A DNA stretch of 64,000 nucleotides from Parcubacteria group bacterium Gr01-1014_31 (GTDB taxonomy: Bacteria; Patescibacteriota; Patescibacteriia; Buchananbacterales; GWA2-38-13): NCBI GenBank assembly GCA_007376135.1, contig VMFR01000002.1:221870-285869 (forward strand), written 5' to 3'. Each line of letters opens with the position of its first letter. The first letter of the stretch is position 1. The notes under the pieces are model-generated. The model was not told the DNA's origin. It worked only from the letters and a program-made list of their open reading frames with translations, and searched no databases. The position numbers and the translations under genes are program-made. Of the stretch, positions 4,979 through 42,168 are shown piece by piece.

Positions 4979-5836
4979 ATGCGAAACGCCATTTCGCTCC
5001 TTGTGTTACTAACGATGACGTCGTCTGCCGCCGGGCAGGATCCGCCACCGGCACCCTCCGCGCCATCGCCCGCGGTGCCTGAACCAGCGCCTCCCGTGTG
5101 GGATTGGCGCGACCCGTTGCTCTCCGACGGCCCCCGCTGGCAGCCGCACGGCCGCGTCTCCTTCACGCTCCAGCAGCGCTACCTTGCGCTGAGGGTTTCG
5201 CGGTCGCTACACGATTCGTGGCAACTGTGGACCGACGCGTCGTTCGACCTGCCCCAGGGATTTTACCTTGGTTTGTGGCACTACATGGGCTTGGACGACA
5301 ACGACCTGTCTTCCAACGGCGGTGACGAGCTTGATCCCTACCTGGGCTGGAAAGGAACGATCGCCAGTCTGGACTTTCGCTTGGAAACCATCTACTTCAA
5401 CCTCCACCCCGTGGAACACTGGTATCGCGGCGATACCTGGGCTCAATCCTCGGCCGTGTCCAAAAAGTTCGACCTGTCCGCGGACCACACGCTTCGTTTG
5501 GAGGTCCAAGTTGACTGGTTGTCCAAGGCCGACGATTTTTCCAATGGCGCGTTGGTCCTACTGCCCAATGCCACTCACGAGTGGCAAGCTCCGTTCGGTA
5601 TCAACACGCTCATGTTCAGCCAAAAAACCTGGCTGGCGTGGGATGATGGATTCGACGGTCCCGGCAATAGTTCCGATGGACTTTTCCTCCGCTACAACGC
5701 GGGACTGCACTGGGAGCTCAAACCGGATATCACCCTGATGTTTCCCGGCTTTACCGCGCTGATAGCGCTCACCGATCCTCACGACGGCCGTGAAAGCGCC
5801 GTGGCCCTGAATTTCGGCCTGAAGTTCAGTTTCTAG
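4979..5836 (+). CDS. secreted protein, putative outer-membrane beta-barrel (MipA/OmpV-like?)
   Basis: signal peptide MRNAISLLVLLTMTSSAAG; Pro-rich linker; C-terminus ...ALNFGLKFSF ends in Phe with alternating hydrophobics (OMP beta-signal). Confidence 0.55.
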   Translation: MRNAISLLVLLTMTSSAAGQDPPPAPSAPSPAVPEPAPPVWDWRDPLLSDGPRWQPHGRVSFTLQQRYLALRVSRSLHDSWQLWTDASFDLPQGFYLGLWHYMGLDDNDLSSNGGDELDPYLGWKGTIASLDFRLETIYFNLHPVEHWYRGDTWAQSSAVSKKFDLSADHTLRLEVQVDWLSKADDFSNGALVLLPNATHEWQAPFGINTLMFSQKTWLAWDDGFDGPGNSSDGLFLRYNAGLHWELKPDITLMFPGFTALIALTDPHDGRESAVALNFGLKFSF

Positions 5837-5866
5837 CGGCCACCGCACGTTACTTTAGTAATCCGC

Positions 5867-5899
5867 AAGAGCGCCCGCCGGCGCTCTTTCCTTTTTACC
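5867..5899 (+). terminator. rho-independent terminator (AAGAGCGCC-cgcc-GGCGCTCTT + T-rich tail)
   Basis: perfect 9-bp stem then TTCCTTTTTACC. Confidence 0.7.
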
Positions 5900-5928
5900 G
5901 TTGATTGTTATGATGACGGTTATTATCC

Positions 5929-7179
5929 ATGCAAACTTTTGTCCGCAAGAATCCGCTCGCCGTCATCTTTTTGACGGTTTTTGTTGACCTACTGGGGTAC
6001 GGCATCCTTATTCCGGTGGTGCCGCTGCTGCTGACCGACCCGGTCTCGCCGTACTACCTGTTGCCGGCCGGCTGGTCGGTCGGGCAGGGCTATTTTTTGT
6101 TGGGCGTGCTGCTCGCGACCTACCCGTTGGGGCAATTTTTTGCCGCTCCCATCCTGGGTCAATTGTCCGACCAGTTCGGCCGCAAGAGAATCCTTGCCGT
6201 GTCGCTGGCCGGCACGTGTCTGGGCTATGTGCTCTTCGCGGTCGGGGTCGTTTTGCACAACATACCCTTGCTGTTTGCGTCGCGCCTGCTGGACGGGTTG
6301 ACGGGCGGTAATTTCGCCGTCGCGATGGCGTCCATAGCCGATGTCAGCAAACCCGAGCACCGCGCCAAGAACTTCGGGCTCATCGGCGCGGCGTTCGGCC
6401 TCGGGTTCATCCTCGGGCCGTACTTGGGCGGCAAGCTGTCCGACCCGAATGTTCTCGTCTGGTTTTCCGCCTCGACGCCATTCTGGTTTGCCGCCGGTTT
6501 GAGCCTGCTCAACATCATCTCCATTCTTGCGTTCTTTCCCGAGACCCACCAGACGCGCGCTCCCTGGTCGGCCTTGGATTGGGGAAAGTCGGTGAAGAAT
6601 ATTTTTGCCGCGTTCAAAATACCGGGCGTGCAACTGCTGTTTGCAACGACGTTCCTCATCAACGCCGGTTTCACGTTCTTCATCACCTTCTTCAGCGTGT
6701 TTATGATCAAGCGGTTCGGGTTCCAGCAGGGCGAGATCGGGGATTTTTTCTCGTACATCGGCCTGTGGATCGTCATTACACAGGGAATCATCGTGCGGCA
6801 GCTCGCCGGTCGTTTCCCCGAGGCAAGCATTCTGAAGTTCAGCATTCCGGTGCTTGGCGTGGCGGTCCTGCTGCACTTTTTGCCGAACGGGTGGTCCGGG
6901 CTGCTGCTCGTTGCCCCGGTGCTGGCGGTTGCCAACGGACTGACCCAGGCCAATCTTTCCGCGCTCATCAGCCGTTCGGTGGGGCCCGAGGTCCAAGGCG
7001 AGGTAATGGGCATTACGTCCAGTTTGGCGGCGGTGGCGCAAACCGTCCCGCCGCTGCTGTCTGGGGTCATCGCCGCGGCGCTGTCCCCGGCCGCGCCCAT
7101 TGCGGTCGGCGCCCTGGTGCTGCTCCTGGCGGGTGTGCTGTTTACCCTGCACTACCGCCCCGCCGCGGTATCAACTTAA
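5929..7179 (+). CDS. MFS transporter (drug:H+ antiporter-like)
   Basis: 12 predicted TMs; MFS motif A GQLSDQFGRKRIL between TM2-3. Confidence 0.85.
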   Translation: MQTFVRKNPLAVIFLTVFVDLLGYGILIPVVPLLLTDPVSPYYLLPAGWSVGQGYFLLGVLLATYPLGQFFAAPILGQLSDQFGRKRILAVSLAGTCLGYVLFAVGVVLHNIPLLFASRLLDGLTGGNFAVAMASIADVSKPEHRAKNFGLIGAAFGLGFILGPYLGGKLSDPNVLVWFSASTPFWFAAGLSLLNIISILAFFPETHQTRAPWSALDWGKSVKNIFAAFKIPGVQLLFATTFLINAGFTFFITFFSVFMIKRFGFQQGEIGDFFSYIGLWIVITQGIIVRQLAGRFPEASILKFSIPVLGVAVLLHFLPNGWSGLLLVAPVLAVANGLTQANLSALISRSVGPEVQGEVMGITSSLAAVAQTVPPLLSGVIAAALSPAAPIAVGALVLLLAGVLFTLHYRPAAVST

Positions 7180-17611: not shown

Positions 17612-17764
17612 ATATTCATCGATATTTCATCATAACCCTGGCAACGGTTTTACGCAACACTGGCATAAAAGACGGTCCTGCTGGCCGGATTTTTTAGCCC
17701 CGGTACGGTTTAGCGCCAGCCAAAGTACTGCCGGAACGGCCGGCAGTTTATTTTGAGAGGTAAC

Positions 17765-17797
17765 TCTAAAAAAACTCACCGACGAGTTGCCGGTGAG
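17765..17797 (-). terminator. rho-independent terminator for 17811..18293 (CTCACCG-gcaactcgt-CGGTGAG + T7 on minus strand)
   Basis: seen directly. Confidence 0.6.
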
Positions 17798-17810
17798 GTT
17801 CAGGGTCCCC

Positions 17811-18293
17811 CTACTCGAGATCGAGGCCTTCCTCCTCGAGGAGCTGCGTGAGGTCGATGTCCAGGAGGTCGTCCTCCTGGGGATCGGACAGGCAGGCCCA
17901 GAGGTTGGCGGGCAGCAGCTTGTGCCACTTCTCGCGCAACCACATGATCTCTGGCCCCTTGAGCGCGCCGGTGACCGGCCGGAACCAGGTGAAGACCCAG
18001 TCCGTGCCCGTCGAGATGTCGCCCCGATCATTCACGCCCGTAGCGTGATGAAAGGCGGCGAATCCGACGAGCCGTTCGGATCCCAAGACGATCTCGGGAC
18101 CATCCTTGGGGTGAAGGGAGAGTCTCCATGGGCCGGGTCCGGAGATCCAGCGCGCGGGAGGGCGTTTCTCCGTTTCGACTCCGAGGTGGGCGCGCAGGTC
18201 GCCGCTGGGCGTGAGGGTCCACGCGACGACGGTGTCCGCCCCCCGGGGGATGGGGGGAAGGTGGTTGGGGTACGTCATGACCGAAGCCTCCAT
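17811..18293 (-). CDS. hypothetical protein with acidic C-terminus
   Basis: protein-like composition vs G/R/P-rich antisense ORF 17787..18299; own terminator. Confidence 0.5.
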   Translation of the reverse strand: MEASVMTYPNHLPPIPRGADTVVAWTLTPSGDLRAHLGVETEKRPPARWISGPGPWRLSLHPKDGPEIVLGSERLVGFAAFHHATGVNDRGDISTGTDWVFTWFRPVTGALKGPEIMWLREKWHKLLPANLWACLSDPQEDDLLDIDLTQLLEEEGLDLE

Positions 18294-18622
18294 CTATGAG
18301 GAGGCCGGATACGACGCGCATCTCGGCGACACACCGAGATGAAAATCGCACGGCTGCATCCGGTCGCTCCGACGATTAGGTGGATGCAACAATGTTACCG
18401 GCCCGATTTCCGGCAACTACGAATAGCGCCCGAGCGGGCGAGCCTGAGGAGGCAACGGGAAGGTTGCAAGCTATCGATGCACCGTGGAACATCCCCAACG
18501 AACACTGTAAGGAGCGAAAATTGATTCTAACACAATCCCACGTAATGTCAAGGGATTGGACCATAAAATTTTGCAGCTAGCCCGCGGCGAGAGCTGTGGG
18601 TCTGCGTCCATGATTGGTACGT

Positions 18623-19048
18623 TCAGCGCCAGCCAAAGTGTCGCCGGAACGCGCGGTATTCTTCGCGCGAGAAAAAATCGTTCGGATGCCCTTTGCATTC
18701 TTTGGGGTCAAGCCAGCGGTATTCGCCGTGTTCGAACGAGAGGCGGATGCGGCCGCTTCGATAGCGCGCTTCATAAACGGTGATGAGCACCATGGTGTTG
18801 AACTTCGCCACCGGCCGGCGATACTGCAGCAGTGGGCCTCCGAGGCGGTAGCGGACGCTCCCGCCCAACTCTTCACGCACTTCCCGCGCCAGGATCTTTT
18901 CCAGCGGGACGCGGTCCTCGACGGCATCCACGCGGCCGCCCGGCAGGTCCCATTTTTTGCTGTTGGGCGTTTTCAGCAATAGAATTTTCCGCCCGCGGCG
19001 CAAGAGGATCTTAAAGGCGACCTGGTAGGAGGCAAAGGCGCGGGGCAT
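18623..19048 (-). CDS. NUDIX hydrolase
   Basis: Nudix box GGRVDAVEDRVPLEKILAREVREELGG. Confidence 0.85.
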   Translation of the reverse strand: MPRAFASYQVAFKILLRRGRKILLLKTPNSKKWDLPGGRVDAVEDRVPLEKILAREVREELGGSVRYRLGGPLLQYRRPVAKFNTMVLITVYEARYRSGRIRLSFEHGEYRWLDPKECKGHPNDFFSREEYRAFRRHFGWR

Positions 19049-24238: not shown

Positions 24239-24844
24239 CTACCGGGTAAAGGTGAAACTTTTTACCATTTCCTCAAAGATGGCCGCGTCCGCGGGGGCGC
24301 CGTCGGCGGAAGTAAAGATGAGGCGGTAGAGCTGGCTGCCTTTGGTGAACTGGTATTCAATGACCACGTAGCCGTTGCGCACGCCCGCATAGCGGTTCGC
24401 GGTTGAGCCGCCAACTGTGGTGCTGGTTTTTTCCAGGTCGACGGTGGCATCGGCGATGTCGGCGGGCGTTTTACCGGAGACTTCAATGACCAGCATCCCA
24501 AGGTACTCGCTGCCCAGCCCCGGCAAGGGATTGCGGTCGGCCATGAAGTAGTCGGTCACCGCCGGGTTGCTCGCAGCGATGTCGTTTTTCATCAGGTGTT
24601 GCCAGTACCATTTTTCCGGCCGGCGGATGCGGTACCCCATCGCGCCGTTCTCGTAATCGGCATAGGTGACGGGCGCGCCGCTGGCCGGGGAACTTGATGG
24701 CGTTGCGCTCACGGTCGGCGATGGCAGCGGTGTGGGTGCCGTGTTGATGTTGCCGTTCTCAATAACGGCGGGTTTCGGCGTACAGCCGGCGAGGAACAAC
24801 AGAGCAGTAATGATTATACCGAATCGAACGATGGGTGAATTCAT
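24239..24844 (-). CDS. hypothetical lipoprotein
   Basis: signal peptide with lipobox LAGC; Pro/Thr/Ser-rich linker. Confidence 0.6.
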   Translation of the reverse strand: MNSPIVRFGIIITALLFLAGCTPKPAVIENGNINTAPTPLPSPTVSATPSSSPASGAPVTYADYENGAMGYRIRRPEKWYWQHLMKNDIAASNPAVTDYFMADRNPLPGLGSEYLGMLVIEVSGKTPADIADATVDLEKTSTTVGGSTANRYAGVRNGYVVIEYQFTKGSQLYRLIFTSADGAPADAAIFEEMVKSFTFTR

Positions 24845-24851
24845 AAGACTA

Positions 24852-25478
24852 TTATTTTATCCAAAATCCAGAAACTTCAGCCAAGAATAATGTGGGTATG
24901 CTCATTAATGTTAGTAGCCAGAGAAAGAAAATGAATTTTAGTATTTTGTAATCTTTAAATTTTAATATTTGGGGTATTGATTCCTTATTGAGTATTGCCT
25001 GTTCAATTTCATCTCCTTCGATAAGCAATTGTTCTGCTCTGGCTGCATAGTCATAATATGATTTCCGGGTTGCAGCTATATGCCTAATTTTTGCGAGTAA
25101 AGTTTTTTGGTGATAATTTTTCAAAGTTTGAGATATGTCTCTGTATTTGATGAATGTCTCAATGGTGAATAGCAAGAAAGATAATGCGACTATGCGTGCC
25201 AATATTTGTATAAACCCTGAGGAGAATTCATCTTTCTTTGCGAATACAATTGTTAGCAGGACTCCGACGAAAGATATGATGGTAAGCTTTATTTTAAGTA
25301 AATAATCATCGAAACTTTTGGAATATTCCATTAAGGTTTTATAGATTTCTGTTTTTTCAATAAATTCTTGTTTTGTTATTTTCTGCCGTTCATCATCGCT
25401 AGCGGCTTCCATATAAATATTTGCTATACAATCAATCTTTTGGCCACCCCACCGGGTTCCCACATTGTCCCGCCTCAC
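24852..25478 (-). CDS. low-GC (about 30% GC) hypothetical 3-TM membrane protein, likely horizontally acquired
   Basis: strong compositional anomaly; Lys/Ile/Phe-rich; 2 TM + cytoplasmic coiled region + C-terminal TM; probable start at MEAASDD (about 25412). Confidence 0.55.
   Translation of the reverse strand: MRRDNVGTRWGGQKIDCIANIYMEAASDDERQKITKQEFIEKTEIYKTLMEYSKSFDDYLLKIKLTIISFVGVLLTIVFAKKDEFSSGFIQILARIVALSFLLFTIETFIKYRDISQTLKNYHQKTLLAKIRHIAATRKSYYDYAARAEQLLIEGDEIEQAILNKESIPQILKFKDYKILKFIFFLWLLTLMSIPTLFLAEVSGFWIK
25445..25466 (-). pseudogene. tRNA-Glu 3'-half fragment (decayed duplicate with 13-nt internal deletion)
   Basis: GCCCCACCGGG..TTCCCACATTG collinear with the intact tRNA at 25579-25650. 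Confidence 0.5.
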
Positions 25479-25561
25479 GGCGGGATGCTCATAATTGCTG
25501 CGAAATTTATTTCACTTCGTTCATAAATTTCGGCAATTATGGCAAAAGCTCGTCCGTATTG

Positions 25562-25668
25562 ATTCTGACAAATTTTTTTAGCCCCACCGGGAATCGAACC
25601 CGGGTTCCCACATTGAAAGCGTGGTGTCCTAGCCACTAGACGATGGGGCCAAAAAAATTTGTCAGAAT
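25562..25668. repeat. perfect 18-bp inverted repeat flanking the tRNA (ATTCTGACAAATTTTTTT ... AAAAAAATTTGTCAGAAT)
   Basis: seen directly; tRNA lies exactly in the loop. Confidence 0.8.
25579..25650 (-). tRNA. tRNA-Glu (anticodon UUC)
   Basis: cloverleaf reconstructed by hand: acceptor GGCCCCA/TGGGGCT, T-arm CCGGGTTCGATTCCCGG, anticodon loop CTTTCAA; discriminator A, CCA not encoded. Confidence 0.85.
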
Positions 25669-25911
25669 ATTAATTTGAGAAATGCCAGTTTGTGGAAGTT
25701 GAGGCCGCGGGCCGAAATCCCGCTATCTTGCGGGATGTGGTGTCTGCCCCGTCGGACCTGTTCCGTCGAATGGCGGGATGACGGGGTCCTAGCCACTACC
25801 CCGCCGCTGGCGGGGCAGGGACGATTCTGCCATAACACGCGTAGCGGGGAGTCCCGCTACCTGGCCTATGATACGGGAGAACGGGTGAATCGTCAATGCA
25901 ACGCTGCGCGC

Positions 25912-26735: not shown

Positions 26736-29090
26736 TTACCGGACCTCGTCGCCCATTGGATAGTAGTCCAGGTGCACGCGGCTGACATTGACGACGTGCG
26801 ACCGCGGCAGCGACAGTGCATCGTAGGCCGCCGGATCGGCGATGCGGCGCTTCACACCATTGTCCAGCAGATAGACGTCCGTTTCGCCGTCAACCTTCAC
26901 CAGCCGGACCTGGGGGTAGCTTTCCATGTCGATCTCGTTGATGACGACGACATTGCCCCAGTAGTTGCCCGGGTAGGAAACGAACACCGTAGGCGAAGGG
27001 AGGCCCAACTTTAGCCAGCGTTCCTGCGGGCGCTTGTAGAGGTAGTGGATCTGCGGGTCCGCGGGAGTTCGCACCAGCCGCGCGTCCGGGTAGCGGTCCA
27101 GCGTCGCCTGCGACACCTCGCGGACGTCGGGCCATTGGTAGCCGTAGGCGGCAAAGGAGGCCGGGCCGGCGATGAGGTGCTTTTGGCCGTTCAAAATGGC
27201 GTAGACGTCCGGGGTGCCTGCCACGCGCAGCAGCGCGGAAGCCTGGGTGTACAGCAGGTTGGAGCTGCCTAGCACCTGGCCACTGGACGGGTACGACGGC
27301 GCGATGGTCACGGTCGTTGGCCCAGACTTCGGCAGCCAGCGCCCGACGCCCTCGGTGTACAGCAGTTTGATCTCGCTGTCGGTCAGCGCGCGGCCAAAGA
27401 TGGTCAGCTCGTCCAGCGTGATGTCGCCGTTGACGATGCCGAACGACGCATTCTGCGTCCCGCCGACCAGGAACGCGTCGAGCAAACCGGCTGGCGTGGC
27501 CGACAGGGTCGCTGCTTCGCGCTTCAATCCGCGGTAAGCGTGGGTTTGGGCCGGCTCGCCATTGACGTACACTTTGCCGGCGCCCCCGTCGAAATCCCAC
27601 GAGACGGTCATGAACATCCACTGGCCGGCGGCTGGCGCTGCATTTTGTACGAAGTAGCGATAGTCCACGTCGTCGGCATCTTCCAGGCCGAAGTAGAGCT
27701 TGTTCTTCTCATTGAGGTAGACGTTGGCGATGCCCTTGGCGCCGGTTTTGCCGATGGTCAGGTATTTATCGTTGACCTGTTGGTAGGCGGCGTTATTGGT
27801 GAACAGTTGATGGTGGATGTCGTCGCTGTTGTCCCAGTTGGGTTTGAACCAGAACGCAATGGTGCCCGCGGACGGGTTGGCGTTGTCGCGCCCGTCGTAC
27901 TGCACGCGCGTTACGTCCGTCAGGGTCACACCTTCACTGCGGCGGCCGCCAGAGTTTTCCGTCACCGACGGCACCCCCAGGGCGATGCCCAGCGGGTCGC
28001 CAAGCGAAAAGTCCCCGTGCAGCCCCTGGTCGTAGCTGGCGTAGAACATCAGGTCATGGCGCGACGTCACGCCCAGGACGCGGCCGCTATTGTCGTAGGC
28101 GGCCGGCGTGCCGGCGCGATCGCGCGTCACGAAGCTCAACGCCGTCGTTTTCGCGTTGGCGGAAAACAGGTCCTTGGATTCCACTGAGAAATAGTAGGTG
28201 GTGTTGGGCTGCAGGCCGGTGATCTGCGCGGTGTGCGTGTAGTCGCGCGGTCCGCTGATGGTGATGGTACGGCCAAGCTTGTCGGTCGGGCCCCAGCGCA
28301 CCACGCCATTGGCCAGGGTGGTCGAGCGCCAGGAAATTTCCGCGGACGTATCCGCCAGCCCCGGGTCATTCCCGGACACCGGACGGATGGCGGTCAGCTC
28401 CAGCACGGGACGGTTCGCCGCGCTGGTCGTGCGGAAGCTCAACCCCTCGGATACGGCAGTGTTGCCGCCGCTGTCCTTGGATTTGACGCGGAAGTGGTAC
28501 GTCGTCAGGGGCTTCAGTCCCGTGATGAGCATTTCATGCACGGTGACGCGGGCGCCGTCCTGTTTTTTGCTGCCGTAGTTGGAGGTCAGGCCGTACTCCA
28601 CCAGACTGTCGGTGGCCTCATCGGTGCGCCACTGGACAAGCACCTCCGTGCCGCCCTGGTAGGGAACGGCAACGTCGGTCAAACCGGGCGCGTCGCGGTC
28701 AACGGCCTTGGTCGTTTTGAAGGTCTGGTCAAAACTGGCCGTTTCCTGGCCGGGGCTCGAGGAGATGACCCGGAAGTGGTAGGTGGTCTCCCCCCTCAGG
28801 CCGTTGAGGGTGACCTGGTGGCTGGAACGCTGTTCGCCCTCGTAGCCGACGGTGGAACCGTGCGCGGACGTCAGGCCGTACTCCACGCGTCCGGTCGAGG
28901 GGATGTTGGTCGACCAGCTGATAGTCGCCGTTGAGTCCAGGGCGCTGACCCGGATGTTCGCAACAATGAGCGCCAGTTGCCCATGGACAACAAAAGGAGC
29001 TACGGCAAACAGGATTGCCGCGCTCAATGAGATAATGAAATTCGGGGTGATTCGCTCCATACCATGAACTATAGGACGTAAAAAAGGCAT
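26736..29090 (-). CDS. secreted surface protein: 3x fibronectin type III (purple-acid-phosphatase-N-like) + LamG/concanavalin-like domain + tandem C-terminal repeat domains
   Basis: repeated TxxISWxT..VEYGLT..LxxLxPxTTYHFRV units; LamG-type ...LDELTIFGRALTDSEI; two about 60-aa repeats ending YPxxRLV; N-term signal/TM. Confidence 0.7.
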   Translation of the reverse strand: MPFLRPIVHGMERITPNFIISLSAAILFAVAPFVVHGQLALIVANIRVSALDSTATISWSTNIPSTGRVEYGLTSAHGSTVGYEGEQRSSHQVTLNGLRGETTYHFRVISSSPGQETASFDQTFKTTKAVDRDAPGLTDVAVPYQGGTEVLVQWRTDEATDSLVEYGLTSNYGSKKQDGARVTVHEMLITGLKPLTTYHFRVKSKDSGGNTAVSEGLSFRTTSAANRPVLELTAIRPVSGNDPGLADTSAEISWRSTTLANGVVRWGPTDKLGRTITISGPRDYTHTAQITGLQPNTTYYFSVESKDLFSANAKTTALSFVTRDRAGTPAAYDNSGRVLGVTSRHDLMFYASYDQGLHGDFSLGDPLGIALGVPSVTENSGGRRSEGVTLTDVTRVQYDGRDNANPSAGTIAFWFKPNWDNSDDIHHQLFTNNAAYQQVNDKYLTIGKTGAKGIANVYLNEKNKLYFGLEDADDVDYRYFVQNAAPAAGQWMFMTVSWDFDGGAGKVYVNGEPAQTHAYRGLKREAATLSATPAGLLDAFLVGGTQNASFGIVNGDITLDELTIFGRALTDSEIKLLYTEGVGRWLPKSGPTTVTIAPSYPSSGQVLGSSNLLYTQASALLRVAGTPDVYAILNGQKHLIAGPASFAAYGYQWPDVREVSQATLDRYPDARLVRTPADPQIHYLYKRPQERWLKLGLPSPTVFVSYPGNYWGNVVVINEIDMESYPQVRLVKVDGETDVYLLDNGVKRRIADPAAYDALSLPRSHVVNVSRVHLDYYPMGDEVR

Positions 29091-29116
29091 AATTTAGCTT
29101 ATTTTTACGATTTTTC

Positions 29117-29145
29117 ATATTACCATAAGTCAAAAGTTTTGTCAA
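29117..29145 (-). promoter_or_regulatory. sigma70-type promoter TTGACA-17-TAATAT (minus strand) for the FN3/LamG gene
   Basis: hexamers and 17-nt spacing read directly. Confidence 0.55.
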
Positions 29146-29224
29146 TAGAAACGAAAAAAGGACTGTTTGCTCCGCGAGCATACAGCCCTTTTGCGTTACC
29201 TTCCTTTGGGTTCCCAAGTCTTCC

Positions 29225-29389
29225 CTAGCGGACGACCGGCTTTCCCTGCAGTTCTTTCGGGATGAACTTCCTGCAGATCGGGCACGGACTCCGTCCTGGG
29301 TAGCGGACGCCATGTCCGCAGCATTGGGATGAAAAGAACTGTTTGAATTGGTCAACGAGGAAGGTGAACATTCCTAGCTTTTTTTGCAT
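29225..29389 (-). CDS. small Cys-rich protein (54 aa; CCGHG...CPIC)
   Basis: own promoter TTGACA-17-TATAGT (29430-29458), SD AAGGAG, and downstream imperfect 13-bp hairpin + T6 terminator (about 29180-29215). Confidence 0.55.
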   Translation of the reverse strand: MQKKLGMFTFLVDQFKQFFSSQCCGHGVRYPGRSPCPICRKFIPKELQGKPVVR

Positions 29390-29476
29390 GGGACTCCTTC
29401 CTGCAAAAGGGCATTTTTGTTTAAAAAGCACTATACCATTTATTAAAACTTTTGTCAATGCATCCGTGGTAAATGT

Positions 29477-29505
29477 TTGTTTCGTAGCAACTGACCCCGT
29501 ATAAT
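29477..29505 (+). promoter_or_regulatory. promoter TTGTTT-17-TATAAT for 29523..29747/VanW operon
   Basis: read directly. Confidence 0.5.
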
Positions 29506-40726: not shown

Positions 40727-41458
40727 TTAGCGTTGGGGCAGCGTGTTCCACAAGGCGTCAAACATGGCCGTTTGCACTTGGGTCAGTTCGTCGCTCTCCA
40801 CGACCAGAGCAACTAAATCTTTGCGGAATGAAAACATCGCGATTTTATTGCCCCAGATGAAAATGTTGCCATGGTAGCGGTAACTTTCCGGGATGATTTT
40901 CACCACCCGCAGGTGTTGGGGCCCAAGCTGCTGGCGCTCCCGAGCTTTTGGCGATTCCCGTAAGATGACTTGTACGGAAATTTTTTTTTGCACACGTTTT
41001 TTTACGAATTCGGGAAAAATTTTATCCAGGGTCGTAAAAAGATCCTCCGCGGCGCCAAACGAGCGCACCTCGCGCGCCTCTGCCAGTATTTCCTCCAAAA
41101 TCAGCTTCATCCCCAGTGTGCCTTGGTAGAACCGCACGGTCGGGCGGTGCTTGGCGGCGCCGTAGAGCGCGCGCAGTTCCGGAAAAGCCTGCTCCAATAG
41201 CTCCACCTTATCTTTGGCCAGGACAATGACTTTCTGGGGATCCTCGGCGCCGTAGTATTGGATATTTTTCTTTTTGTACGTGGAAGCAAAACCCTGCTGG
41301 CACAGACGTTCCAATAGTTCATAGCATGTTGAGCGGGGTAATCCGGATTTTCGGCTGATTTTTTGTACCGACGCCGAACCCAATTCCAAACAAGCCAAGT
41401 ACACCTTGGCTTGTTTTTCCGTTAGCCCGAAGTCTTTGAGCGTTTGTTCGAGGTTCAT
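40727..41458 (-). CDS. TrmB family transcriptional regulator
   Basis: N-terminal HTH LGLTEKQAKVYLACLELGSASVQKISRKSGLPRSTCYELLERL + TrmB C-terminal domain. Confidence 0.8.
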   Translation of the reverse strand: MNLEQTLKDFGLTEKQAKVYLACLELGSASVQKISRKSGLPRSTCYELLERLCQQGFASTYKKKNIQYYGAEDPQKVIVLAKDKVELLEQAFPELRALYGAAKHRPTVRFYQGTLGMKLILEEILAEAREVRSFGAAEDLFTTLDKIFPEFVKKRVQKKISVQVILRESPKARERQQLGPQHLRVVKIIPESYRYHGNIFIWGNKIAMFSFRKDLVALVVESDELTQVQTAMFDALWNTLPQR

Positions 41459-41500
41459 AAGAGTGTAGTATCTTTACTCATCTTTTTCCCCCTCTCCCTA

Positions 41501-41523
41501 CCCTCTCCCACCGAGGGAGAGGG
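41501..41523. repeat. hairpin repeat CCCTCTCCC-accga-GGGAGAGGG (family also at about 44595-44620 and 45318-45340; variant TACCCTC-gtgg-TGAGGGTA at about 41718-41740)
   Basis: three perfect 9-bp-stem copies seen directly. Confidence 0.65.
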
Positions 41524-41775
41524 GACAGGACAAAAGCCAATGTGCGCCTTGAATCCGCTCGGGACGATTGAACATAATACTTTTGCATCAAATTGAGTCA
41601 ATTCTGTCGGTAAAACCGACAACATTTATCTAACTTAATAATAGCTTACTTTAGCAATTTTGTCAAGTATTAACATTATATATTGACGGTTTTATAGACT
41701 AATTTACCTAATTATGGTTTACTTCACCGTTACCCTCGTGGTGAGGGTAGGCACATTAACAAGGAGGAACAATTC

Positions 41776-42168
41776 ATGGCAGAGCCTAAGGCAGCCGAGT
41801 TTACTGTTGGCGGTCTCGTTTTCGCGCTAATCCCCTTCCTTAAGGAAGGGGAAATCCATATCGACTATGACGAGCTGCTAAAGCGCGCCAAAAAGCTTAG
41901 AGCCAGCGGCTCAAAAGGCTGCCGGTTCATTCGTGATCATCTGGAAGAAATTCCTGCTGAATTTCGTTGGGAGTTTGATCTGATTTTTCCAAGCTACCGC
42001 CGCCCCGGGTTCCCGTCGCGGTTGCAAGCGTACTTCGCCGAATTCTTTTGCGGGAACAGCGGTACTTGGGTCCAAGCTTGGCGTCCGCTCAGATCCGACT
42101 ATTTCGACTATGGCGGGCACGATCGACTGGTGCGCCGGGTCAGAATGAAAAAAGGGGGAAACAAATAG
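41776..42168 (+). CDS. small protein, paralog family member 1 (130 aa)
   Basis: shares F-T-[IV]-[GA]-G..[VY]-[GA]-L..[PF] ... EEIP.EFR.EF.L[IV]F ... W.Q.W ... [YH]DRLVR.V with 43788.., 44164.., 44733..; SD AAGGAGG. Confidence 0.6.
   Translation: MAEPKAAEFTVGGLVFALIPFLKEGEIHIDYDELLKRAKKLRASGSKGCRFIRDHLEEIPAEFRWEFDLIFPSYRRPGFPSRLQAYFAEFFCGNSGTWVQAWRPLRSDYFDYGGHDRLVRRVRMKKGGNK

Follow-up and report, generated by a model that had tools for sequence, protein, structure and literature searches.

The closest described counterparts of the locus considered here are second-line defences embedded in restriction-modification operons, such as the anticodon nuclease PrrC of the Escherichia coli prr type I locus and the restriction-linked "rlo" open reading frames (ORFs). 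The stretch of DNA analysed, called the window below, is 64,000 nt of contig VMFR01000002.1 of Parcubacteria group bacterium Gr01-1014_31, a metagenome-assembled genome of a GC-rich groundwater Parcubacterium, and the gene in question, here named X, lies on its minus strand and encodes a protein of 186 amino acids (aa) with three transmembrane (TM) segments. Like PrrC and the rlo ORFs, X can be an extra, unrelated gene between modification and restriction genes, co-oriented and tightly spaced, and it also occurs without them. Unlike them, it is a three-TM protein with no nuclease or ATPase domain, and it accompanies type III and type II/IV-like rather than type I enzymes. The copy in the window is best read as an intact, recent, stand-alone member of a restriction-linked three-TM family, most likely a defence-island membrane component, with a probability put at roughly 0.55. 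The defence role is inferred from sequence; it is preferred because the homologues of X, in their usual low-GC hosts, are co-oriented and tightly spaced with methylases and nucleases, or have toxin-antitoxin and Bro-N/RhuM genes around them.

The gene and the features by which its 5' end is judged are:

24852..25412, minus strand: gene X, 186 aa, three-TM, ending in TAA with TAG next in frame (ORF, with the start set by alignment)
25413..25478, minus strand: GTG-extended 5' part of the ORF, overlapping a tRNA-derived fragment
25578..25651, minus strand: tRNA-Glu(UUC), from ARAGORN and Rfam (61.4 bits), 72 of 72 nt as in a relative considered below

The longest ORF in the interval first singled out (24845–25478) is 24852..25478 on the minus strand, 208 codons from a GTG. 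The ATG at 25412 is taken as the true start, for a protein of 186 aa, because the 36 homologues aligned with it all begin at that position; by the same alignment 25413–25478 is probably an untranslated leader. The NCBI annotation has a 203-aa product starting inside this segment, named hypothetical protein G01um101431_757. The GC content is 0.324 for X and 0.339 for 24845–25478, close to the figure of about 30% over 600 bp in the initial annotation; the 65%-GC background given there was too high, as the whole window measures 0.606. X ranks lowest in GC of all 561-bp windows across the 64 kb (z = -5.7), and in 200-bp windows the GC drops from ~0.63 to 0.31–0.36 between 24800 and 25400 and is back up by 25700. 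At third codon positions (GC3) it is 0.32, compared with 0.75–0.84 in four neighbouring genes. Ile, Leu, Lys, and Phe are abundant in the protein, in keeping with the Lys/Ile/Phe richness noted at the outset. The chance of an open frame of ~190–208 codons in 33%-GC DNA is ~1e-7 (our own estimate from base composition), and X retains every nearly invariant residue of its family; on these two grounds it is taken to be a real gene.

Hydropathy places the TM segments of X at residues 38–56, 66–84, and 160–178, the three-TM topology originally described, and the AlphaFold2 model discussed below agrees. The segment between TM2 and TM3 is 75 aa long, not 85 aa as first given, and is net basic; from this and from hydropathy the N-terminus and the middle domain are predicted to be cytoplasmic, a location that had already been proposed for both. 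Directly downstream, also as described, a lipoprotein gene with the lipobox LAGC (24239–24844, minus strand) starts 7 bp past the X stop. The tRNA gene, stated to be within 120 bp, is indeed 100 bp from the GTG, but 166 bp from the true ATG. X's other surroundings include genes for a class I S-adenosylmethionine (SAM) methyltransferase, which is also present at the empty site of the relative, and a DEAD-box RNA helicase.

A word-indexed homology search with X returned X itself only; when 1.84 billion cluster representatives were scanned exhaustively with HMMER, 43 proteins came up at E ≤ 1e-3, 19 of these at E ≤ 1e-10, with a best identity of 45%, and a profile search of an indexed database added just six more. 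Apart from two short fragments they are 151–238 aa long, most of them 177–206 aa; they can be aligned over their full length and share an architecture that is conserved down to ~22% identity. Among the motifs, KxKLAF opens TM1, FS sits in the short outer loop, the cytoplasmic domain carries TxLAKIRHIA and Y..RAE..LL, and TM3 has W...LFLSxPxLFL. X belongs to a conserved, unnamed Parcubacteria/Patescibacteria family, the named members being from Parcubacteria GW2011_GWB1_44_7 and one Patescibacteria metagenome-assembled genome (MAG). No family member was found in a scan of GTDB representative genomes, and none in 50,697 GenBank phage records, 2.9 million viral contigs, or the PLSDB plasmids. With the family alignment, AlphaFold2 gave a predicted local distance difference test score (pLDDT) of 92.8 and a predicted template modelling score (pTM) of 0.76 (a single-sequence run, at pLDDT 57, was unusable). 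The model is all-helical, with two ~50-residue helices forming a hairpin that carries TM1 and TM2 at its tip, followed by a return helix and TM3. When the family profile was compared with PDB sequences, nothing came below E = 0.26.

The gene neighbourhoods of the homologues carry most of the argument for a defence role. By raw count, 6 of 12 informative contexts have a DNA methylase or restriction nuclease no more than two genes away from X. The loci compared (L-numbers) are:

L013 and L025–L030: N6_N4 Mod methylase, X, ResIII helicase-nuclease, with gaps of 2–4 bp; then a DUF433/DUF5615 pair
L011: Mod, 124-aa protein, X, Res, AAA_21/DUF4435 ATPase
L035: EcoRI-type methylase, X, GmrSD_N/HNH nuclease
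L021/L022 (closest homologue): X overlapping by 8 bp the end of an ORF for the C-terminus of a site-specific DNA methyltransferase (tblastn)
L008/L009: DpnI, 77-aa ORF, X, Bro-N, RhuM
L010: nucleoside deoxyribosyltransferase-like (Nuc_deoxyrib_tr) gene overlapping X, 309-aa unknown, divergent N6_N4 methylase
L016, 1238–1935: X (GC 0.35) in a 0.53-GC contig, starting 48 nt past the 3' end of tRNA-Lys(UUU), same strand
L036: X in a stretch of lower GC with a tRNA-Ser gene at its start
Other contexts: PIN-X-NUDIX; Bro-N-247aa-X-P-type ATPase; GNAT-X-Band_7; X-SpvB/FG-GAP; unknown genes

The family thus recurs inside or beside restriction-modification modules. Two mod-X-res operons can be considered independent, since the Mod pair of L011 and the L013 type is just 31% identical and the Res pair 23%. 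In ordinary type III systems on plasmids res directly follows mod, and X is therefore seen as an insertion into type III operons. Beyond Mod and Res, no conserved partner was found among the genes flanking the homologues. The initial annotation likened X to components of defence modules, and the neighbourhoods of the homologues, with methylases, nucleases, toxin-antitoxin, and Bro-N/RhuM genes, lend this independent support; in this genome X itself stands alone. As to the accompanying genes, the 124-aa protein before X in L011 (1957–2331) has a C-terminal TM helix, the AAA_21/DUF4435 ATPase after res (5212–6696) is OLD/AbiEii-like, and the DUF433/DUF5615 pair of L013 (6708–7073) is PIN-like.

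Placement between mod and res with gaps of 2–4 bp suggests co-translation and stoichiometric assembly, and could be taken to mean that X tethers the restriction-modification enzymes to the membrane or regulates them, holding Mod and Res near the DNA-entry or uptake machinery or controlling their assembly; the copy in the window would then be a functionless or re-purposed passenger. The conserved basic cytoplasmic helical domain would suit such a role, as would the fact that no likeness to pore-forming effectors was found. X is however also found beside unrelated enzymes (type III, an EcoRI-type methylase with GmrSD/HNH, DpnI) or beside none, and the two Mod/Res pairs share only the low identities given above. 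An autonomous module fits this pattern better, and a tether is considered unlikely.

The variety of contexts raises a different possibility, that X is a selfish or neutral single-gene passenger in poorly constrained, often recombining sites, tRNA 3' flanks and defence islands among them, its link to restriction being a by-product of where insertions can be tolerated. Host contigs of the homologues range from 0.29 to 0.53 GC, and X is below its surroundings at every locus except L021, where there is a tie (0.285 vs. 0.287); no mobility gene accompanies it. L016 is a second, independent tRNA-X configuration, so that there are two cases directly 3' of tRNAs in GC-richer hosts. (The gene call at 1433 in L016 omits 24 N-terminal codons, and the family alignment suggests an ATG at 1361. 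An att-like repeat after X at this locus was considered and dropped, as it consists of 7–8-mers at background frequency only.) A passenger would not be expected to keep its length, architecture, and motifs across 43 clusters down to ~22% identity, which argues for purifying selection on a function, or to be found in co-orientation between mod and res in two divergent operons. This explanation is regarded as quite unlikely, and an autonomous defence-island component is preferred to it.

The other known proteins with which X invites comparison are the SLATT proteins and small two-TM effectors of the CBASS (cyclic oligonucleotide-based antiphage signalling system) or Pycsar type. Like these, X is ~180 aa long and its family occurs in defence islands; single family members also give faint PycTM or 2TM-effector matches. 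X also has a helix-TM-TM-helix hairpin with cytoplasmic helical extensions, which may correspond to their two-TM core, but it has in addition a conserved third, C-terminal TM helix, and the fold searches offered no match for a comparison. Unlike them, it has no cyclase, SMODS, or SLOG partner in 13 contexts. More generally, neither the annotated genes around X in the window nor those at the homologue loci that were examined include a SMODS/SLOG or other nucleotide-signal generator.

Profile searches did not bear out the SLATT/Abi-like character initially suggested, and the hidden Markov model (HMM) comparison proposed with it, covering Abi, SLATT, and holin families, gave nothing above threshold. 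The SLATT profiles used were the Pfam SLATT families and NF033634, NF033631, and others from NCBIfam. The window protein has no match to them in Pfam at E ≤ 1 or in NCBIfam at E ≤ 0.01. Among 37 family members, faint NCBIfam matches below threshold were seen in three, two to SLATT_1 (best E 0.0044) and one to SLATT_5 (E 0.0064), and Pfam gave none at E ≤ 0.01. Neither X nor the family has a Pfam match to Abi_2, AbiEi/AbiEii, Abi_C, or CAAX-type Abi. PADLOC gave single-member matches only, at E ≥ 6e-4, to the unrelated models PD_DExK, PycTM, and Drt2 over TM segments, and PHROGs likewise gave scattered single matches over TM segments and no consistent one. The most recurrent Pfam match is PF24838 (8xMP), found in 5 of 37 members and not in the window protein. 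The best E value among the five is 2.7e-6, for a member whose score is not listed, and the three listed scores are 14–22 bits vs. a gathering threshold of 30 bits. In these three the match spans the N-helix, TM1, TM2, and the following helix; unlike X, the 136-position profile has no return helix or TM3. A literature search turned up nothing on 8xMP/PF24838, on operons with a TM gene between mod and res, or on this MAG. Because of these profile results X is not placed in SLATT, Abi, holin, or 8xMP. It resembles small defence-island membrane effectors and genes intercalated in restriction operons, and is not demonstrably a member of any of the four.

For holins, the sole match was to Holin_SPP1, in one family member at E 0.082, and there are no lysin or phage genes within 10 kb of X. 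This bears on whether X might be the remnant of a prophage or satellite integrated at the tRNA-Glu gene, for instance a holin-like lysis or superinfection-exclusion protein. Insertion at a tRNA with a partial tRNA repeat, the small multi-TM product, and the Bro-N and RhuM genes adjoining some homologues would all be in character. On the other hand, no homologue was found in phage records, viral contigs, or BFVD folds, the PHROGs matches are inconsistent, and no endolysin, integrase, or other phage gene lies within 10 kb; a 75-aa cytoplasmic domain and a length of 186 aa are also atypical for holins. A phage origin of this kind is very unlikely.

That X was acquired at this locus is clear from a comparison with relatives. 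Three relatives of the lipoprotein next to X were found. In the congeneric MAG GCA_030648715.1 (L003; Logan copy L004), 13 kb are syntenic with the window at 84–92% nucleotide identity, and the methyltransferase is 96% identical at the protein level. Its tRNA-Glu is identical over 72 of 72 nt and is followed by CCACCGATAATATAACGAGCAAACCT (23 bp) and then the ATG of the lipoprotein gene, an empty site; 776 bp in the window stand in place of 72 bp in this relative. By BLAST, the left breakpoint is at 25579, where the alignment ends at the tRNA discriminator base, and on the right the alignment with both L003 and L006 begins again only at 24798–24802, the lipobox. The CCA of the tRNA is encoded in L003 and not in the window. 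In a third strain (L006/L007, 1–348), an unrelated segment of 0.345 GC lies directly upstream of a lipoprotein gene with its native start. It has no similarity to the window insert and contains a 71-aa ORF whose product has a TM helix at its C-terminus; both contigs stop at this point. The more distant relative L005 has no tRNA at this locus, and a scan for further relatives with the methyltransferase as query recovered only the congeneric MAG already known.

Given its foreign composition, the empty site in a congener, and a different insert in a third strain, X was acquired rather than inherited here and is foreign to this genome, as the initial annotation had supposed on composition. The same gene at the same place and with the same composition, which would have spoken for ancestry, was looked for in the relatives and is not seen in L003 or L006/L007. 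The site between the tRNA-Glu and the lipoprotein gene is a recombination hot spot.

It is extremely unlikely that X is instead ancestral and was deleted in the relatives, or that the low-GC block is an assembly chimera. The empty site is known from one congeneric genome only, and the three X-bearing assemblies appear to come from one sample, the ENA (288 kb) and Logan (11 kb) assemblies being 100% identical to the window. The Logan contig (SRR8863434, L002) also breaks in the tRNA: it ends at 25615, exactly at the end of a 16-nt repeat shared with the tRNA pseudo-copy described below, which may reflect an assembly-graph branch caused by population variants or merely the repeat. Ancestry is incompatible with a GC3 of 0.32 compared to about 0.8 nearby, and the nearest relatives of X are in low-GC Parcubacteria. 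As for a chimera, both junctions are bridged identically by two independent assemblers in contigs of 288–300 kb; two joins 776 bp apart would be needed that spared the tRNA and kept the lipoprotein signal peptide in frame; and a different strain has a low-GC insert at the same junction.

Read from the tRNA, the insert consists of an 18-nt arm, an AT-rich palindrome, a GC-rich hairpin, a tRNA pseudo-copy, X, and a new 5' end for the lipoprotein gene. The features are:

25651..25668, no strand assigned: upstream arm of a perfect 18-nt inverted repeat, abutting the 5' end of the tRNA
25562..25579, no strand assigned: downstream arm of the same repeat, beginning at the discriminator base
25490..25541, minus strand: AT-rich imperfect palindrome with a ~19-bp stem and 2-nt bulge (inverted-repeat search)
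25468..25485, minus strand: GC-rich hairpin CCCGCC-GUGA-GGCGGG (sequence and RNA fold)
25441..25467, minus strand: pseudo-copy of the tRNA-Glu 3' half, an att-like direct repeat
24803..24844, minus strand: new 5' end of the lipoprotein gene, 42 nt, GC 0.38, acquired DNA
24239..24802, minus strand: native part of the lipoprotein gene, GC 0.61, 84% aa identity in relatives, outside the insert

In the pseudo-copy, tRNA positions 37–52 are joined to 61–70 (16/16 and 10/10 exact) with a 13-nt deletion in the T-loop, followed by TGG and CCA. The new start of the lipoprotein signal peptide is MNSPIVRFGIIITALLF, where relatives have MQKFTKRCAV(A/T)AGTLLL; the start codon is also acquired, with the junction falling exactly on the lipobox-coding CTCGCCGG(C/T)TGT. 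Within the new 5' end, at 24821–24835, CCCATCGT (8-mer) and GTTCGATTC (9-mer) match tRNA-Glu positions 5–12 and 53–61, a similarity spotted post hoc. The idea that part of the native spacer is retained behind the tRNA fragment or ahead of the lipoprotein ATG was dropped (shuffle p 0.26–0.31); spacer comparisons between L003 and L006 and between the window and L006 gave p of 0.84 and 0.10.

The 18-nt inverted repeat has only two copies in the 64 kb, where 0.02 would be expected, and both arms are missing from L003. It abuts both ends of the tRNA and lengthens the acceptor stem to ~25 bp in the predicted precursor. A processing signal, a foldback repair scar, and the end of an element are candidates for the origin and role of this clamp. 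The RNA fold of 25440–25690 is more stable than its shuffles (z = -7.6). Rfam found the tRNA alone at this locus; matches to Plastid-ycf2 and miRNA models were rejected as the tRNA and its clamp aligned to the wrong model. The exact spacer and junction motifs were searched for in viral contigs and not found.

Many of these features recall tRNA-targeted islets: insertion right behind the 3' end of a tRNA, an atypical base composition, a relative with an empty site, a partial tRNA repeat, which is a hallmark of integration at tRNAs, and different cargo in a sister strain. In contrast to such islets, the insert is just 776 bp with one gene and no integrase, and its repeat lies between tRNA and cargo. 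The 3'-half copy of the tRNA is found only there, the far end having the post hoc 8-mer and 9-mer. An integron cassette was also considered; the 5' palindrome has no attC core motifs (by inspection, with no covariance-model search) and there is no integrase nearby. Because the right breakpoint is inside the signal peptide of the neighbouring gene, allele replacement by homologous recombination fits at least as well as site-specific integration. The insert could have arisen through serial integrations, since decayed, or else homologous recombination, acting between tRNA and lipobox region, could have brought in a complete allele.

One further feature bears on how X might be expressed:

25868..25896, minus strand: promoter-like site TTGACG-17-TATCAT, 10/12, just past the methyltransferase stop, with a 97% identical sequence in the relative

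This site is a candidate start for a tRNA-X-lipoprotein transcript. No promoter or terminator consensus was found between the tRNA, X, and the lipoprotein gene, and because none separates them, read-through from the tRNA promoter is a plausible, if speculative, way for X to be expressed. Between the methyltransferase stop and the tRNA there is a GC-rich structured leader, ~70 nt longer in the window than in the relative, which no Rfam family matches. It includes D-arm-like tRNA fragments at 25786–25798 (tRNA 14–26) and 25737–25744 (tRNA 24–31), the former of which predates the X insertion, as it is conserved in L003 (2867–2880).

Elsewhere in the window, ~900 bp at 17727–18626, with a 155-aa ORF of normal GC between a NUDIX and a 112-aa gene, are not present in L003 (9331–9343). 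The patches next lowest in GC, at 29000–29500 (0.44) and 41250–41800 (0.43), are intergenic or promoter-like and not foreign genes. Two copies of TTTTGTCAAT, at about 29133 and 29450, lie upstream of divergent genes, and the motif might be a promoter element.

Several observations weigh against the preferred reading. No Mod methylase/ResIII, nuclease, or other defence gene adjoins it among its neighbours in the window; it is an orphan copy without a partner, whose activity here may differ from that of its homologues or be nil. The homologue contexts come from 13 loci, mostly on short metagenome contigs, and about half of them have no restriction gene beside X. Nothing in Pfam, PADLOC, PHROGs, or NCBIfam is above threshold for the family, fold searches against solved structures and the BFVD viral folds gave generic helical hairpins only, and the family has no profile-based or experimental link to any characterised effector. 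At the insertion site itself, the tRNA repeat is on the tRNA side of X and not on its far side, which misfits a simple integrase model, and there is no integrase-family domain in the precomputed Pfam calls within 10 kb on each side, where several genes have no Pfam assignment; the insert is a single ORF.

On the preferred reading of X as a membrane component of defence islands, it might act as follows. The protein, whose gene came in on a 776-bp AT-rich segment that took the place of 72 bp between the 3' end of the tRNA-Glu and the lipobox, has a predicted cytoplasmic N-terminus, a TM1-TM2 hairpin, a basic cytoplasmic helical bundle (LAKIRHIA...Y..RAE..LL), and the C-terminal TM3. The bundle could receive a signal or a partner, either the nuclease or methylase or a phage product, upon which the three-TM part would oligomerise and perturb the membrane, giving a second line of the abortive-infection or exclusion type behind restriction, by a logic like that of prrC, a gene embedded in a restriction locus. 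In this genome X has no partner and is probably expressed by read-through from the tRNA promoter. This membrane-acting second-line mechanism is speculative, and is put forward with low to moderate confidence. A more specific version seems improbable at present: X would be a new CPR-specific (Candidate Phyla Radiation) membrane effector guarded by restriction, placed between mod and res or between a methylase and a type IV nuclease, silent while the restriction complex is intact and collapsing the membrane when a phage disables it, as in PrrC but with the membrane as target, and would also spread as a promoter-less cassette 3' of tRNAs, expressed by read-through, as at the tRNA-Glu of the window and the tRNA-Lys of L016.

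The novelty here lies in an unnamed family whose members in CPR bacteria are repeatedly placed between mod and res; as an acquisition the case is ordinary, and if X is an inert passenger the finding amounts to an ordinary small genomic islet. Even so, the locus is a clean case, in nature, of a very recent transfer from low-GC to high-GC Parcubacteria, with breakpoints resolved to the base pair (the tRNA end and the signal peptide) and with three states of the site among related strains. To our knowledge, few phage defences beyond restriction-modification have been recognised in the CPR/Patescibacteria, a large and uncultured part of bacterial diversity. A family that has no Pfam entry or fold match and yet recurs in restriction operons is a readily testable candidate for a new defence component, whether accessory or back-up, in these organisms.

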